DNA of 64,000 bases from Mobula hypostoma (GCF_963921235.1 NC_086108.1:39000001-39064000), one strand, 5' to 3'. Positions 5,765 through 60,053 are shown, numbered from the stretch's first letter. Program-made: numbers and translations. The notes: generated by a model from the letters alone, not told the origin.

Positions 5765-6075
5765 GTCAAGGACCTCTTCAAAAGGTGGTGCCTCAAGAAG
5801 ATGCCATGCATCATTAAGAACCCTCACCATCCAGGAGATGCCCTCATTTCCATTACTACCATTGGGGAAGAGGAACAGAAGCCTCAATATCCACACTCAG
5901 TGTTTTAGGAGCAGCCCCTTACCCTTTGTCATTAGATTTCTGATTGGTCACTGCCTCATTATTTTTTGTTTACACTGTGTATTTCACAGTAATTCTAATT
6001 GCACTGTACAGCTACTACAAATGTCATGACATATGCCAGTGATAATAAACATTATTCTAATACAGTACCGATTCT
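5765..6075 (+). mobile_element. Rex/Babar-like non-LTR element, 3' fragment
   Basis: Decayed IIKxPHHPG..LLPxGxR coding remnant; 3' end gtgataataaac followed by an attct repeat. Confidence 0.55.
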
Positions 6076-7339
6076 GATATCACTAGTTCAAATATCTGAT
6101 AAATCCACAATTAACAAACATCATACTTATAAATATTTCCTTGGCAGACATTAAATAACTACAAATAAAGTTATCAATTTTTGCCAGGCAGATAGAAAGT
6201 TTGCAGACAACTCACAGTGAAATATGCCATTCCACTGTCACCATTCCTTGGTCTACATCAGAACTAAACCTGGTATCCTTTCAGGAAATATCATAAGTAG
6301 TGAGTATAATGGAATATATACCACAGTACAATGCAGGTAAAATGCAGCCCTGGTTAGCTCATACCATGCATCAAGCCAGTACTTTTCATGCTGTCTATTA
6401 TACCTCAATGCCCTGGTGCACGTTTGCCATTAACGTGCTGGTAGAAGTTACTAATGCTTCCCATCTTAACTCTAATATCTGTCAGGTAAATGCACATAGA
6501 GTTTAATTGCTGTTTTCCCACACTATGGAGTTGCTTACAAGTGGGACTGAAGTGCTAGCTCTCCTCACTTTCTCTGGCTGCCTGCTTTACTGACATTCCC
6601 AGATGCCCTTATCCTCAGTCTGCCAGAGTTAACAAATTTTTGCCCTCTTTCCAATGGAGGAACATGCCAGATACAAGCAAGAGGTGAGGTAATTCTCGCA
6701 ATGGTGAAAACTGTCTTGTGAAATTATGAAGCAATTAGTTGTAGCAACCACGTTTTTGCATCCCAACCACCATACAGTAGCTGCAAGAAATAATTTTGTT
6801 CTTGCTGATAGATTGCTAAATACATACATAACCAATTCAAAGATCTGGTGAACCCACAATCAACACACATCATTAACATCAAGAGTAAACACTGATGATC
6901 GTTTTTGTTTTCTGTTTAGGTCACAAAATTATGAAGTCTCAAAACATATTTTTGTACTCAAACACGTTATTAGAAAGGGCGTGACTTATTGATTTTATAA
7001 TGTTTCGTAATTTAAGAAAAATGCTCTTATTGCAGTAGTAGAGAAAGCCATGCTGTGTTTACTGCTGGCCACTACCTGTACTTACCATGTGCCTGCTCTT
7101 GGGTCACATTTGACCTCAAGGCCTGGATGCTATGGCTTTGCTGTGAGATGGACTGGGCCATAGCAGTGAGCCTGATGGGAATAAAGCTGAGTTTTTTTCT
7201 GAAGCTTATCCAGCTCCTCAGTTCTGTTAAGTTGGAGTCAATGATGAAATCAACAGTGAAGCTGGAGGTCAGAAGAAAAGCCTCTGGCTTCCAACTCAAC
7301 TGGCTTTGGCCCATCCCCTTTGGCTTTCACTGACTTTTT

Positions 7340-54332: not shown

Positions 54333-56713
54333 ATCGAGCCTAATTACAGGATATTTCACAATGACCAATTAACTTACTAACCAGTACGTCTTTGGAATTT
54401 GGGAGTACCTGTTGGAAACCCAGACATTATACGTGGATGAAGTACCAGAGGATGCTGGGATTGCACTCTGAACTCCAACGTCCTGAACTGTAATAGTGTC
54501 ATGCTAACTGCTATGTTAACATGGCACCAGAGTTGTTGGAACCATGAGCATTTATCCGGCTCATCGAACTCAGAGAAGCATCCAAAGGGGCTTCTCTGCA
54601 GAGTGCTCAAACGAAGCTGTTTCCACAATGTGCCTGAGGTTTACTATACATGCAGGAGATCGGGAAGGCGCAGGATTGAGGAACTTGTGTGTAATTTGCT
54701 GCAATGGGAAATGGATACCCAGAAGGATCTAGCCGGTACAAAGCTAATGGCAGTGCTGTAACTTGTGGGGTAGTACTGGATGCCACATTCAGTGTTGCTG
54801 CCACATAGCTCCTGTTACCCAAGGCCAGTCGTGACTGCTGCGTGTGAGGTGTTTGCACGTTGTCCCTCTGACTGCCTGGGTCATCCCACATCCTAATGAT
54901 GTGCATGTCGGTGGGTTAATTGGCCACTGTAAATTACTCATGTAGGTGGGATGTGAGAGGGAAATTGATTGGTATTTGGGGGGAGATGGGGGGCAGGGGA
55001 AGCGAACAAATTACAAGGAAATGGGAGAATGGTGAATGGGACTAAGAGGAATCTCTGTGAAGCAGCATAAATTTGAAGGGCTGAATGCACTCCAATGTCA
55101 TAAGGAAATATGGTTGGGGCTCCATTGTGACTGTGCAATTTAATATTATTCCAGTATACAGTTATTTCAAAGAGATGGTTCGATCCACGAAAGCATCTTT
55201 CCAACTTTACATTAAAATTTATTTTGATGATACACTGTAATAAATCATTTCTTCAAACTGAAATGATGTACTTCAAAAATAACAATATAAAATCAAAACA
55301 GTCTTCAGCAAAACAAGCTTATTGCGATAAAATAGCCTGAAGCAACAAGGGCTTGAAAGGATTAAAGTTTTTATAAATATATTTTTTCTCATCACTATGA
55401 AATTCAGACAGTTATATCAAAGCTATCTGCAAGTCTGACCCTCAAAATGGAAACATTCATATTTGAAGTGTGTCAGTATTATGAACACAGACAATACCCC
55501 TTTAATCTTTGAGAGGATGAAAACTTTACATGTTGTAACATTCTGATACAAATGGATACATTTTTTGGCTGTGTTTCAGAGTTCTGGCAGTTAATAGCAC
55601 TGGGAATTACTGCTGCCAAGACCTATTACACATGACTTCTTCCCCATTGAGGAATACCAAAATGTTGTCAGTAAAAACTCTGAACTGTAGATCAGATTAT
55701 TCAAAGAAAAATCATTAAAAGCAAACTCCAATAAGTACTTTTCTCCCTTTCTAGAGTTGGATCAAGAGCTTTGCATTCAAATCCAGTTTCCATTCAAAGC
55801 AAAAACACAAGAAGAAAATAAATCAAACAAGCCTTTCTTTTTTAATAGTATTTTTAGTACTGAAGAAAATAAAAAGAATATAGATAGCAAACTAGATTAA
55901 ATGCAAGCTATCTTTTTCACCTTTGAGATTTGCGTCTGTATCTAACCTGGAATGATTTTTTTTAAGCCTAGAATAAGACTAAGTAGCTTTAACCACCTGC
56001 TAGAAAATGTGGCTCCAAGCACTAAATTAGCTGCAATTCAACATCAAAAGGGCAGCTCAAGTGGGGCTCAAAATGGCTGCTGTTCTGACAAGGTCTAGGC
56101 ATGGTCTTAAAAGAACAGCAGGGGATGGAAAAACAGAACGAATTCACAAGGAATGACAGAGGATGGTTTCAAGATGCTTAACAATAGGGCCCACAGTCAC
56201 AGGTTGGAAGAAAGGTGAATGTATAAGAGGCACAGAAGGTTGGCAGACAGGGTCTTGGCTATAAATTCAAAGGAAAATAGCCACAAAATGGCAAGATGGT
56301 AATCAATAAAGACATTAAGGGACTAGGAAGCACCGTCAATCATACCTGGTGCAGAATAATGCAAAGGTGAATGTATCACATGGAGAATAGGCTAACAAAG
56401 AAAACACACAGGCACTCAAAGCACGTGTACTTATGATTTCATTCATCTTTTTAAATGTAGGGGTAGTGGAAAGGCAACACTCCAGCAAGTAGTGGTGAGC
56501 CACCTCCTGAACTGTCACAGTTCACAGGGGTTCCAGCAGCAGAGAGGTTCAAACAGCAGACTTTTTCTAAAGAGAGTAGGAAGGAGAATCTTTCTCATGG
56601 AAGAAGTATGTTAACAGGAGACTTTTGGTCGCTGTCGACCTGGTTTGGCCTAATAGTGAATGGGGTTGGAAAGAGCATCACTGCAGAGAATCCAGTTTAT
56701 TTGAAAGAGCTGC

Positions 56714-58632
56714 TGAATTGAATTGAAAATACACTCGGACTAAGATATTAACTGTCCTGTGCTATCACCAGTGGGATCATCAGTTGATTTGCCACCTGTC
56801 TTCGGGAGTTTCGGCCCGCTTATGATCAAGACTCCCTTGAGGTGGTGGGCCAGCAGTGCTAAAGCACCACCTCCCACTGGTGAGCTTAAACACTTGGCAT
56901 CTGCCTCTATCAGAGTTGTTGGTCGCTTCCATCCAACAGACAATCTGCTCTTCAGGTGTCTATGCAACTACTGAAGGGTTTGCAAAAGATGTATACACTG
57001 TCTGACTATCTGCCCTTCTGGACATACTTGGTCCATACCCATGCTGATCCTTCCTCTGCTGCCTCAGCTACAGCCCTGCTGGTTGACTTGATCTCTCTTC
57101 TAGTGAAACCAAGGTCACGCAGCCACTTCTGGAAAGTGAACGCAATAAACCCACGGCAGCCTACTTCGAATGGATAGCATGAGACCTTCCACCCTCTGTC
57201 TCTGCACTCTGATCTTAATTCTACATACTTGGTTAACTTACGCTCATGGGATTCATCGATGTTGTCTTCCCAGGAGACTGAGTTCACCAATAACCACTTC
57301 TGTACTGGTGTCAGACCATATGATTATATCTGGACACAACGTTGTGAAATCTATTTGCTTCGGAAACTGCCTTTCCCATCCAGGTCGGCCTTAACACACC
57401 AATCATTGGCTGAAGAAAGTATGCTTGATCGTGATCCTGTGCTGTACACCCCTGACTTGGAGCCTTCTTTCACAAATGATATACGATGTTCTGTGCAGCA
57501 TGGGGCATGAGATAAGTTATGCTGCAGTACTCTCTGCTCAACCGCTTCTGTTACAACTTTGAGAACATTGTTATGTCTCCAAGTGTACATGCCGCTGGAA
57601 AGATTGACTCTGCATGCACTCAAAATATGTTGAAGTGTTCCCTTCTCGCCACAAGCAGCACACCTGTCTGTCTTATCTTCATACCAGGTGCTGAGGTTGG
57701 CAGGTGTTGGGAGCAGGTCGTACACTGCTCTGCATAGAAAAGAAATGCAGAGCGGTTCCATCTGCCACAGAACATTCCAAGACAGATGTCGTTGTTCAAC
57801 ACTTTCCCACCAGGTCCAAGCCCCTTGTTTGGCCAGGCCAGCTGTTTTAGTTAACCTCTTCTCCTCTTGTATTTCTTGTGTTACAAGCTCACGGCGCTCC
57901 TTACCTGAAGAAGACGACCACTACTTGTGGTTTGTCCACCCAAGTCCCTGGTGGCCTAACTGGGTAGCCCCAATCGTCTCCTTGTGCTTCAATCTAGACT
58001 CTGCTTCATCGACTGCTACACGGTCTGATCACTTCCTGCCTGATCTCACATCCGGCTGGGTGTTCTTGATGACATGGTCTTTTGAGTCTTGAAGCACCAA
58101 GAATGATTTTACCTTGGCTACCTTGACCTCTTCAACAAGGGATTGCACTGTGTTGGTAAGCTTTGTCTGGCTACAGTGGATTGCAACATTGGTGAGGCTG
58201 CTCGGTACTCCAAGCCACTTCTTCACATACTTGTTGATCTTCTGTTCCATTGCCTCAACATGGAACATTGACACTTCATAGACAGTTATTGGCCACATTA
58301 TCCGTGCCATCAGTCTGTACTGCAAGCACCACAACTTCAACTTGCCAGGCTTTTCAACAGACGTCAGACCTTTGCTGATCTGTTCTCCTGTCTCTTGAAC
58401 CCTCTTGGTGTGTCTCAGCTCCTCTGTGTACCATCGCCCGAGGCTCTTAACTGGTTGGTCCTGAATGGATGGAATCTCCTCTCCACAAAGGGTGAAATGA
58501 AAGTCAACCAGCTTTCCTCTCCTAAGAACAAGGCTCCTTGACTTCTTGGTCTTGAACTTCATTCTTCCCCAATCCATTAGCTCCTCGAGTCTAGATAGAA
58601 CACTTTCCACTGCCTCTGTGCTAGGACCCAAA
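56714..58632 (-). mobile_element. HERO-like (R2-group, restriction-like endonuclease) non-LTR retrotransposon, 5'-truncated
   Basis: RT C-terminus (WGRMKFKTKKSRSL..PVKSLGRWY), CCHC finger CAACGEKGTLQHILSAC, YTWRHNNVL, PDIIIW, W-E-D..HERKLTKY and FEVGCRGF. About 290-nt 3' UTR ending in a TTCAA repeat. Confidence 0.85.
56765..56883 (-). ncRNA. Putative rearranged (non-circularly permuted) hammerhead ribozyme in the 3' UTR of the HERO-like element
   Basis: CUGAUGA (56783-56777), C-GAAA (56813-56809) and GUC (56832-56830) are present, with perfectly complementary stems I, II and III plus a 12-bp closing helix; see findings. Confidence 0.65.
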
Positions 58633-58879
58633 CCCCTTAAGTAGTTGCATAGACACCTGAAGAGTAGAGTGTTTAATTGGTGAACGTCTTACCAAAAGAA
58701 AGGATGCAGTCAAGTAGCTTACAGACAACAGGAAAGCTGGAAGGACAAGTGGAGTTGGAAGCTGTCAATGAGTCAAGATTGTTTAACGTCATTGCCTGCA
58801 CACAAGTGTCAGAATGAAATAATTGTTACTTTGGATTTGATGCAGCACAAAAAAAACCCCAAAAGATATGATGAGGATA

Positions 58880-60053
58880 TCTTTGAGCATATAACAAGCA
58901 CAGTGGATAGAGGGAAACAGATGGATGTTATTTTTTTGGATTTCCAGAAGGTGTTTGATAAGGTGCACATAAGATAAAGATGCATAGAGTTGAGGGTCAT
59001 GTATTAGCATGAATAGAGGATTGGTTACTCTGGTTGGCCATCAGTGGTAGGTGGTGTGCCACAGGGGTCAGTGCTGGGTCCACAACTGTTCACTATATAC
59101 ATTAATGTTCTGGAAGAGGGAACTGAGTGTAGTGTATCTAAGTTTGCTGATGATATTAAATTGAGTGAAAAAGCAAATTGTGCAGAAGATATGGGGAATC
59201 TGCAGAGAGATATAGGTTAAGTGAGTGGGCAAGAGTCTGGTTGATGGGGTACAATGTTGGTAAATGCGAGGTCATCCACTTTGGAAGGAAAAATGGAAGA
59301 GCAGATTATTATTCAAATGGTTAAAAATTGCAGCACGTTGCTGTGCAGAGGGACTTGGGAGTGCTTATGCATGAATCACAAAAGTTGTTTTGCAGGTGCA
59401 GCAGGCTGTCAAAAAGGCAAATGGACTGTTAGCCTTCATTGCTAGAGGGATTGAATTTAAGAGCAGGGAGGTTATGCTGCAATTGTACAGGGTACTGGTG
59501 AGGCCGCACCTGGAGTACTGCATGCAGTTCTGGTCTCCTTACTCGGAAGGATATACTGGCTTTGGAGGTGGTACAGAGGAGGTTCAGGTTGATTCCAGAG
59601 ATGAGGTGGATTAGACTATGAGGGGAGATTGAGTCGTCTGGGACTGTACTCACTGGAATTCAGAAGAATGAGAAGCAATCTTATAGAATCATACAAAATT
59701 ATGAAAGGGATAGATAACATAGAGGCAGGAAAGCTATTTCCACTGATAGGTGAGACTAGAACTAGGGGACATAGCCTCAAGATTTGGGGGAGTAGATTTA
59801 CGATGGAGATGAGGAGGAACTGCTTTTCCTACAGAGTAAACCTGTGGAATTCTCTGCCCAATGAAGCAATAGAGACTACCTCAGTAAATATATTTAAGGC
59901 AAAGTTCGATAGATTTTTGCATGGTAGGGGAATTAAGGGTTATGGGGAAAAGGCAGATAGGTGGAGATGAGTCCATGGCCATGATCTTATTGAGTGGCAG
60001 AGCAGGCATGGCGGGTCAGATGGCCGATGCTTGCTCCTATTTCTTTTTCTTAT
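58880..60053 (+). mobile_element. CR1 LINE 3' half, decayed
   Basis: DVIFLDFQKVFDKV, KFADD, YRVLVRPHLEYC and LGLYSLEFRRMR remnants plus the 3' UTR. Confidence 0.92.

Follow-up and report, generated by a model that had tools for sequence, protein, structure and literature searches.

Hammerhead ribozymes of types I, II, and III are circular permutations that share the cyclic order UH, CUGANGA, GAAA. In R2 and other non-LTR elements, HDV-like ribozymes occupy the 5′ end, where the role proposed for them is to free the element RNA from a longer transcript, and to our knowledge it is for these ribozymes, at the end opposite to that described here, that the R2-type group has so far been known. R2-type retrotransposons are also under development as gene-insertion tools, and template jumping by the R2 reverse transcriptase yields head-to-tail junctions. 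Hammerheads are said to have been placed in the pseudo-LTRs of Penelope-like elements by Cervera and de la Pena in 2014.

A scheme for other strand orders was presented by Eckert, Friedrich, Weinberg, and Weinberg in 2023 (PMC10085705), who divided the hammerhead into blocks S (the cleavage site), G (GAAA), and C (CUGANGA together with two stem strands). In the portions of that article available to us, the blocks were assumed to be uninterruptible because no alignment had more than one or two inserted nucleotides there, and six orders were derived, of which type SGC was validated and CSG and GCS more weakly so. In the SGC alignment, S is followed by a short linker, G, and a spacer; a helix strand comes next, with Ib-CUGAUGA, one U, IIa, one purine, and a further helix strand after it, and a single U inserted between A9 and G10.1 is thus already accommodated in its sequences. 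The examples come from metatranscriptomes and are linked to hairpin ribozymes, with none being tied to a retrotransposon in these portions. The original prediction for the present locus, which noted that natural noncircular permutations of the hammerhead had been reported, was therefore right in this respect. For R2 elements, another study (PMC12222951) describes a short pseudoknotted structure, contained in the final 67 nt of the 3′ UTR, that is recognised by R2 proteins.

We now describe a motif of hammerhead type with a strand order outside this scheme, located in the 3′ UTR of a retrotransposon in the window, the whole 64,000-nt stretch of Mobula hypostoma DNA that was analysed.

Organization of the motif

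All elements of a hammerhead are contained in 119 nt of the minus strand (56883–56765), with stem IIa first, followed by the cleavage site, GAAA, and CUGAUGA. From 5′ to 3′ the motif reads P0, hairpin, IIa, X, (III-U-H-I), (II′-GAAA-III′), X′, (I′-CUGANGA), P0′, and comprises the following features.

56872..56883, minus strand: 5′ strand of P0, UCACCAGUGGGA, forming 12 bp with 56765–56776 and closing the entire motif
56852..56871, minus strand: hairpin of 8 bp with a UUUA loop, contiguous with P0 on one side and with stem IIa on the other, without intervening unpaired nucleotides
56847..56851, minus strand: 5′ strand of stem II (IIa), GGCCC, starting with G10.1 and lying apart from A9 in the sequence
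56846, minus strand: single A between stem IIa and the 5′ strand of helix X
56840..56845, minus strand: 5′ strand of helix X, CCACCU, one A 3′ of IIa and followed by CAA and then block S
56830..56836, minus strand: block S, with stem III strand GGGAG, U16.1 (U56831), and C17 (C56830)
56825..56829, minus strand: 5′ strand of stem I, UUGAU, followed by the 7-nt linker CAUAAGC (56818–56824)
56804..56817, minus strand: block G, with the 3′ strand of stem II GGGCC (56817–56813), GAAA (56812–56809), and the 3′ strand of stem III CUCCC (56808–56804)
Minus strand: spacer GAAGAC, joining block G to the 3′ strand of helix X
56792..56797, minus strand: 3′ strand of helix X, AGGUGG, followed by CAA
56777..56788, minus strand: 3′ strand of stem I, AUCAA (56788–56784), and CUGAUGA (C3 to A9, 56783–56777)
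56765..56776, minus strand: 3′ strand of P0, UCCCACUGGUGA, abutting A9 without a gap

A check of the sequence recovered each segment of the original prediction at its position on the minus strand, and the complementarity is perfect in every helix. The minimum free energy fold is a nested subset of these helices (P0, the hairpin, X formed by CCACCU and AGGUGG, and stem III) with a value of −51.9 kcal/mol and z = −4.0, a stability that was equalled by none of 200 shuffled sequences. The helices of the complete motif cross, the strands follow the order IIa, S, G, Ib-CUGAUGA, and the three-way junction of types I, II, and III is not formed. Given that no nucleotide is left unpaired at the junction in the window, P0, the hairpin, stem II, and the core formally constitute a perfect four-way junction. 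The predicted cleavage site lies 3′ of C56830. We also considered a canonical strand order for the window and rejected it, with no GAAA being present downstream of CUGAUGA within the element.

As in the published type SGC (PMC10085705), a short linker is present and an additional helix connects stems I and II at their far sides, whereas the arrangement of S, G, and C as successive uninterrupted blocks is absent, with block C being split by P0 and the hairpin. Helix X had previously been labelled IIIb; the alignment in the part of PMC10085705 available to us identifies it instead as the counterpart of the SGC helix that ties together the far ends of stems I and II. The strand order had likewise been viewed as scrambled, and it does differ from that of types I, II, and III, but it is not an unrelated scramble: type SGC, circularly permuted with the opening placed within block C, gives this order. 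As judged from its sequence, the motif reads as a type-SGC hammerhead whose ends have been joined and whose chain has been opened anew between A9 and G10.1, where P0 and the hairpin span the gap. On this reading, the split block C breaks the assumption, in the available portions of PMC10085705, that the block is never interrupted.

Standard models had been expected to miss such a fold, and Rfam indeed gave no hammerhead at the gathering threshold in the window, none at E ≤ 10 in 56500–57100, and none in 20 motif-bearing loci. The five weak Rfam matches at E ≤ 10 in 56500–57100 were to unrelated families, and the 20 loci yielded no match to an HDV-like ribozyme. The novelty of the topology had been left to a check of the literature, and in the literature searched, mostly without subscription journals, we found neither this strand order nor a report of a split block C or of a hammerhead in RLE, HERO, or NeSL elements. 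We regard the motif as a variant of a known ribozyme.

The host retrotransposon

The motif is flanked by the remains of a non-LTR element.

57006..58688, minus strand: decayed, 5′-truncated ORF remnants (linker, CCHC finger, and restriction-like endonuclease region), with the stop codon at 57006–57008
56720..56764, minus strand: tail from the motif to the 3′ end of the element, which lies near 56726–56715

A domain search of the window ORF detected zf-RVT (E = 6.9e-5); this copy is truncated near 58688 and the RT domain is absent from it. We found 36 longer relatives of the window protein, many of them with RVT_1, and full-length relatives of 1120 to 1190 amino acids carry both RVT_1 and zf-RVT. 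The closest named relatives are uncharacterised proteins of Branchiostoma and Lytechinus, and the HERO-like affiliation given in the original prediction is putative. The alignment of the relatives (A1) contains the RT, the CCHC finger, and a conserved COOH-terminal block, which we take to be a restriction-like endonuclease of the PD-(D/E)XK type. With the endonuclease so assigned, the single ORF encoding an RT, a CCHC finger, and a COOH-terminal endonuclease, together with the 5′-truncated copies, corresponds to the R2 superfamily.

Similarity among copies ends approximately 40 to 50 nt past the motif, placing the end of the element at about 56726–56715, and contigs from four sequencing runs diverge at 56715–56726; the contigs from these runs carry the common letters of the family and add no covariation. 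Given the stop codon at 57006–57008 and the element end near 56726–56715, the motif is located in the 3′ UTR, as had been proposed. The 3′ UTR spans ~285 nt, with the motif at its far end, ~40 to 50 nt from the end of the element. The family is abundant in the 3.48-Gb genome, with 1357 candidates at first look, the best 40 of which are 97 to 100% identical, and a 28-nt stretch spanning the cut site occurs exactly in 687 genomic places. Genomic copies are 5′-truncated at many lengths, from 300 to 1400 nt.

Relatives with the same layout

Relatives outside this genome were all obtained from metagenome contigs. We examined 80 metagenome loci that encode relatives of the window protein (31 to 50% identical in the best segment) with a script that demanded UH, GAAA, and CUGANGA together with stems I (≥4 bp), II (≥4 bp), and III (≥3 bp), in the order of the window. 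Matches were obtained on the ORF strand of 33 of the 80 loci, on the opposite strand of none of the 80, and in none of 20 shuffled sets. One of the 33, L036, lies inside the ORF and has long spacers; it looks spurious.

Several features that the script did not ask for were also apparent in the relatives. A P0-type helix of at least 7 bp directly after CUGANGA was present in 17 of 32 loci compared with 13% of shuffles, helix X of at least 7 bp in 25 of 32 loci compared with 5% of shuffles, and the hairpin between P0 and IIa was folded in most relatives. In the window and throughout the relatives, stem IIa precedes U16.1 by ~20 nt; in the relatives, helix X begins one nucleotide after IIa, ends 0 to 4 nt before Ib, and covaries, and the linker between stem I and stem II′ measures 0 to 7 nt. 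The sequences of the helices differ between the window and the relatives as well as among the relatives. The true type-SGC layout, with IIa directly after CUGANGA, was tried and rejected, having only weak 4-bp options in L036, L042/L043, L055, and L090.

A covariance model was built from the nested helices (P0, the hairpin, X, and III), with stems I and II left out. Applied to the window and the 80 loci, it gave 52 matches at E ≤ 1 and 41 at E ≤ 1e-7, the latter corresponding to the window and 40 loci, all on the ORF strand; 10 of the loci found by the model had failed the script. At 80% identity, the 41 sequences group into 26 clusters, and in the 40 loci the motif is situated downstream of an ORF encoding a related RT/endonuclease protein. 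The motif with this layout is thus confirmed to occur far beyond chance and to be genuine and evolutionarily conserved.

Covariation and core conservation

Covariation was scored for two alignments: A2, the unfitted MAFFT alignment of the window with 31 loci (32 sequences in total), from which L090 was excluded as doubtful, and the model alignment of 39 distinct rows. For A2 the score was 0.476; shuffles gave 0.187, with none of 500 reaching the observed value, and slid partners gave at most 0.177. For the model alignment the score was 0.577; shuffles gave 0.195, again with none of 500 reaching the observed value, and slid partners gave at most 0.162. Values for individual helices, which are counts over related sequences and not independent events, were as follows.

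Stem I, not in the model: 94.8% of cells paired, both sides changed in 5 of 5 pairs
Stem II, not in the model: 86.7% of cells paired, both sides changed in 4 of 5 pairs
Stem III, in the model: 94.4% of cells paired, both sides changed in 4 of 6 pairs
Helix X, in the model: 86.8% of cells paired, both sides changed in 6 of 6 pairs
Hairpin (6-bp part), in the model: 76% of cells paired, both sides changed in 5 of 6 pairs
P0, in the model: 62% of cells paired, both sides changed in 12 of 12 pairs

All six helices covary. The sequences of the first alignment were chosen by a script requiring pairing of stems I to III, and the controls for this selection were the opposite strand, the shuffles, the model lacking stems I and II, and the 10 loci that only the model recovered. 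Conservation and covariation in other copies had been set beforehand as a check on the prediction, and both are present for all helices across the 40 metagenome loci.

The core was similarly conserved. Among the 39 distinct rows, the core box positions are retained in 38 (C3), 39 (U4), 39 (G5), 38 (A6), 39 (G8), and 38 (A9), G12 in 38, A13, A14, A15.1, and C15.2 in all 39 each, and G16.2 and U16.1 in 38 each; GAAAC is invariant in A2. G10.1 is retained in 36 and C11.1 in 35 of the 39, with the pair being G-C in 32. Position N7 is free (U in 23, C in 7, A in 7, and G in 2 rows). Position 17 is C in 19, A in 12, U in 8, and never G, a result to be read with the fact that G17 was forbidden by the script behind 31 of the 41 sequences, although G17 is likewise missing from the 10 loci contributed by the model. 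The C3-to-A9 core, G12, A13, and A14, the A15.1-U16.1 pair, and H17 are thus all present, with helices I to III in register and covarying. The hammerhead reading of the original prediction is upheld by the covariation of stems I, II, and III, X, and P0 over 39 distinct sequences and by the near-invariance of the catalytic nucleotides, and the core pattern, including the two "free" positions (N7 and 17), reads as the conservation signature of a hammerhead.

Deviations from the core were G12A in L071, A6U in L053, C3G and A9G in L088, and G16.2A in L091. In the L037/L038 lineage, the core box is UUGACAA (C3U, G8A) despite an open ORF of 1165 codons. These deviants speak against the reading of the motif as a working ribozyme.

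Head-to-tail copies and the predicted cleavage site

The 5′ end of the element is kept in 49 genomic places, 30 of which were fetched. In 28 of these 30 copies with an intact 5′ end, the element is preceded, with no spacer, by its own tail and 3′ UTR in a head-to-tail arrangement. The leaders of 12 of the 30 extend back beyond the cut site, whereas 16 partial leaders start at varied points 14 to 100 nt downstream of it and none of these 16 starts at the cut site itself. L124 and L135 have the same start and share a G-to-A change and so probably represent one inherited form. Of the 17 metagenome loci with 600 nt or more of downstream sequence, 5 contain the NH2-terminus of the next copy, which begins 240 to 330 nt past the motif. 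Terminal repeats, in the form of matching contig ends, were detected in L051, L037, and L058, with the ends of L037 being identical over 55 nt. The L051 contig starts one base past the predicted cut site; we give no weight to this start because it is a single case located at a contig end.

Copies truncated at the cut site, defined by demanding the 25 nt after the site and forbidding the 3 nt before it, numbered 0 compared with 687 intact copies, a test that covered the cut-site position alone and that therefore shows no pile-up rather than a depletion. With neither a copy boundary nor a leader start at the cut site, the genomic copies give no indication that cut RNA is copied, and the leaders that run through the site indicate that the RNAs that become DNA are uncut. 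For the Penelope-like element PAc, insertion in vitro did not require hammerhead cleavage, and reads terminating at the site were not found, according to the part of PMC11167929 available to us. The head-to-tail layout matches that of Penelope-like elements, whose hammerheads, in that same part, sit in the repeated region between units.

Function of the motif

We propose that the motif is a conserved permuted hammerhead in the 3′ UTR of a non-LTR clade characterized by an RT, a CCHC finger, and a restriction-like endonuclease, and that it cleaves itself and processes multimeric or read-through transcripts, a reading to which we assign a probability of about 0.72. The near-invariance of catalytic nucleotides across 26 clusters would be hard to explain without catalysis, and we therefore take the motif to be, quite probably, a working ribozyme, with Mg2+-dependent self-cleavage predicted 3′ of C56830. 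The three hammerhead stems and the core would form as in the published type-SGC ribozyme, and the chain from A9 to G10.1 would be replaced by the perfect four-way junction of P0, the hairpin, stem II, and the core. With copies arranged head to tail, each 3′-UTR ribozyme would also lie ~130 to 330 nt upstream of the next unit and, from this position between units, might cut multimeric or read-through transcripts to yield unit-length element RNA. Such processing, which the head-to-tail layout suggests as the most economical role, would be akin to that of the R2 HDV-like ribozyme and of the pseudo-LTR hammerheads of Penelope-like elements. The RNAs that give rise to new copies appear to be uncut, and perhaps the protein of the element binds the 3′ structure and suppresses cutting. 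The use of uncut RNAs as templates would fit a second role of the motif as a protein docking site, like the pseudoknotted 3′ element of R2 in the available part of PMC12222951.

The main rival is a purely structural role without cutting, in which the reverse transcriptase of the element would dock on the fold as target-primed reverse transcription begins; the fold would, in other words, be a protein-binding pseudoknot in the shape of a hammerhead. The motif falls within the last ~165 nt of the element, with only the ~45-nt tail after it, a position that recalls the pseudoknotted element bound by R2 proteins within the final 67 nt of the 3′ UTR (PMC12222951, in the part available), and the absence of a pile-up of copy boundaries at the cut site, the templates read through that site, and the open ORF of L037/L038 in spite of a mutated core are all compatible with docking. 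However, the near-invariant catalytic nucleotides, the free N7, and the lack of G17 obey hammerhead chemistry, and a docking site needs none of these. Given that docking and cutting can coexist, docking competes with the best explanation only in its non-cutting form, and in that form we consider it unlikely.

The boldest reading that the data allow is that the ribozyme acts mainly in reverse, or in both directions, with the ends of unit-length RNA, excised from the head-to-tail arrays, re-forming the motif, in which P0 is closed by the entire element, and being ligated into a circle from which rolling-circle reverse transcription would write head-to-tail copies. The odd strand order would then be an adaptation to a circular life cycle, in which the 3.6- to 3.8-kb element serves as the loop of a ribozyme, is ligated by its own core, and becomes a rolling-circle template, and this would explain the piece of 3′ UTR before nearly every full-length copy. 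Because the motif opens at P0, the remainder of the element can form such a loop, and hammerhead-bearing circular RNAs are known for retrozymes (PMC7229834, in the part available). In addition, 28 of 30 full-length 5′ ends abut a 3′ end without a spacer, leader lengths vary and some leaders pass the cut site, and the L037 contig has identical 55-nt ends. The same head-to-tail junctions would nevertheless result from template jumping by the reverse transcriptase, as for R2, and the 55-nt overlap can also be explained by a tandem repeat; both the reverse reaction and the adaptation to a circular cycle seem improbable to us. A chance resemblance in one repeat family, finally, might be suspected, given that one 119-nt stretch chosen by eye out of a very large scan could mimic a flexible motif definition, but it is refuted by the presence of the layout in 26 clusters, by compensatory changes in every helix, and by the absence of matches on the opposite strand or in shuffles, and its probability is negligible.

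If the proposed permuted, self-cleaving hammerhead is real, it would represent the seventh natural strand order for this ribozyme. The block comprising CUGANGA and stem II, deemed indivisible in the published scheme, would prove to be splittable by a helix junction, which would widen both the targets of motif searches and the design space of engineered ribozymes. The R2-type retrotransposons would join, as a new group, the mobile elements that carry a hammerhead. The arrangement of head-to-tail units with a ribozyme between them would be common to these elements and the unrelated Penelope-like elements, and the role of retroelement hammerheads would become testable in a second, independent system. 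Should the circular reading hold instead, this would be the first case of an autonomous LINE-type element that passes through a circular RNA stage like that of retrozymes or viroids.

Comparison with known systems

The R2 3′-UTR pseudoknot (PMC12222951, in the part available) resembles the present motif in being a compact pseudoknotted RNA at the 3′-UTR end of a restriction-like-endonuclease retrotransposon, and differs from it in that the R2 element has no hammerhead core; protein binding is putative for the motif described here. The HDV-like ribozymes of R2 are likewise self-cleaving RNAs within a related retrotransposon, with the same proposed role as the present motif, for which cleavage is predicted, but they differ in ribozyme class and in position, the motif being located in the 3′ UTR. 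With the classic hammerheads of types I, II, and III represented in Rfam, the motif shares the core nucleotides, the G10.1-C11.1, C15.2-G16.2, and A15.1-U16.1 pairs, H17, and three helices in the canonical register, whereas it lacks the three-way junction, has another strand order, and has no Rfam match at E ≤ 10.

A close relative is type SGC, consisting of the HRIMA-1 motif and its variants (PMC10085705). Both are assembled from the modules S, G, helix strand plus Ib-CUGAUGA, and IIa plus purine plus helix strand. The two have in common the cyclic order of cleavage site, GAAA, and CUGANGA, a short linker from stem I to stem II′, multiple pseudoknots, and an extra helix that pairs a strand just 5′ of Ib with a strand one purine 3′ of IIa. 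In the present motif, however, IIa and its accompanying helix strand precede block S instead of following CUGANGA, and A9 and G10.1 are bridged by a helix of 5 to 12 bp plus a hairpin that split block C. Its hosts, moreover, are eukaryotic retrotransposons rather than metatranscriptome RNAs associated with hairpin ribozymes, and its cleavage is a prediction. With regard to genomic setting, Penelope-like elements (Frangieh et al. 2024, PMC11167929, in the part available) share with the present family a retroelement hammerhead, tandem or partially tandem copies, and the location of the ribozyme between units. Their hammerheads are of type I or minimal and accompany a GIY-YIG endonuclease, whereas the motif described here is permuted and accompanies a restriction-like endonuclease.

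Internally deleted derivatives and relatives of the element

In comparison with the element copy at locus L111, we found that in some copies the first ~500–700 nt of the element is fused directly to its last ~315–570 nt. Two such copies were located, both given in element orientation:

L115, about 5856–6853: internally deleted copy
L118, about 1673–2968: internally deleted copy

Both retain the ribozyme motif and are probably non-autonomous derivatives. The 5'-truncated copy in the window is adjoined on the opposite strand by parts of a different repeat:

window 58684–59970, + strand: ORF pieces of a second repeat bearing a reverse transcriptase

In X1 and X2, two public sequencing runs guessed to be RNA, the summed contig depth for the element's final ~90 nt (window 56733–56809) was 20–50 times that for the upstream part; the same ratio was about 1.5 in two other runs. 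The step in depth lies at 56808/56809, just after GAAA, rather than at 56829/56830, where cleavage is predicted. Given that one contig continues into a simple AG repeat at this step, the raised depth may come from a family of short derivatives or from a 3' fragment that is stable.

A related element represented by metagenome loci L037 (8–124) and L038 (94–210) has UUGACAA in place of the CUGANGA core box. Its ORF is open over 1165 codons and its 55-nt contig ends are identical. This relative may be a lineage that no longer performs catalysis, though it still appears intact.

The first ~100 nt of the 5' UTR in the window's family appeared, by eye, closely similar to that of metagenome locus L051:

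L051, 90–235, versus L118, about 1660–1760 in element orientation: compared 5' UTR stretches

Such closeness, despite only about 38% identity between the proteins in the part compared, suggests a conserved RNA or DNA element in the 5' UTR common to both.

Arrangement of full-length copies

Full-length copies of the family are arranged head to tail in the Mobula hypostoma genome (5'-end loci L119–L148; L118, at G000:C2:102737500–102741500). Directly 5' of 28 of the 30 intact 5' ends at L119–L148, with no spacer, lies the element's own tail together with 3' UTR of variable length. Several metagenome relatives (L031, L054, L058, L063, L085, L051, and L037) also manifest this layout, which in the present family is similar to the pseudo-LTR-like layout of Penelope-like elements.
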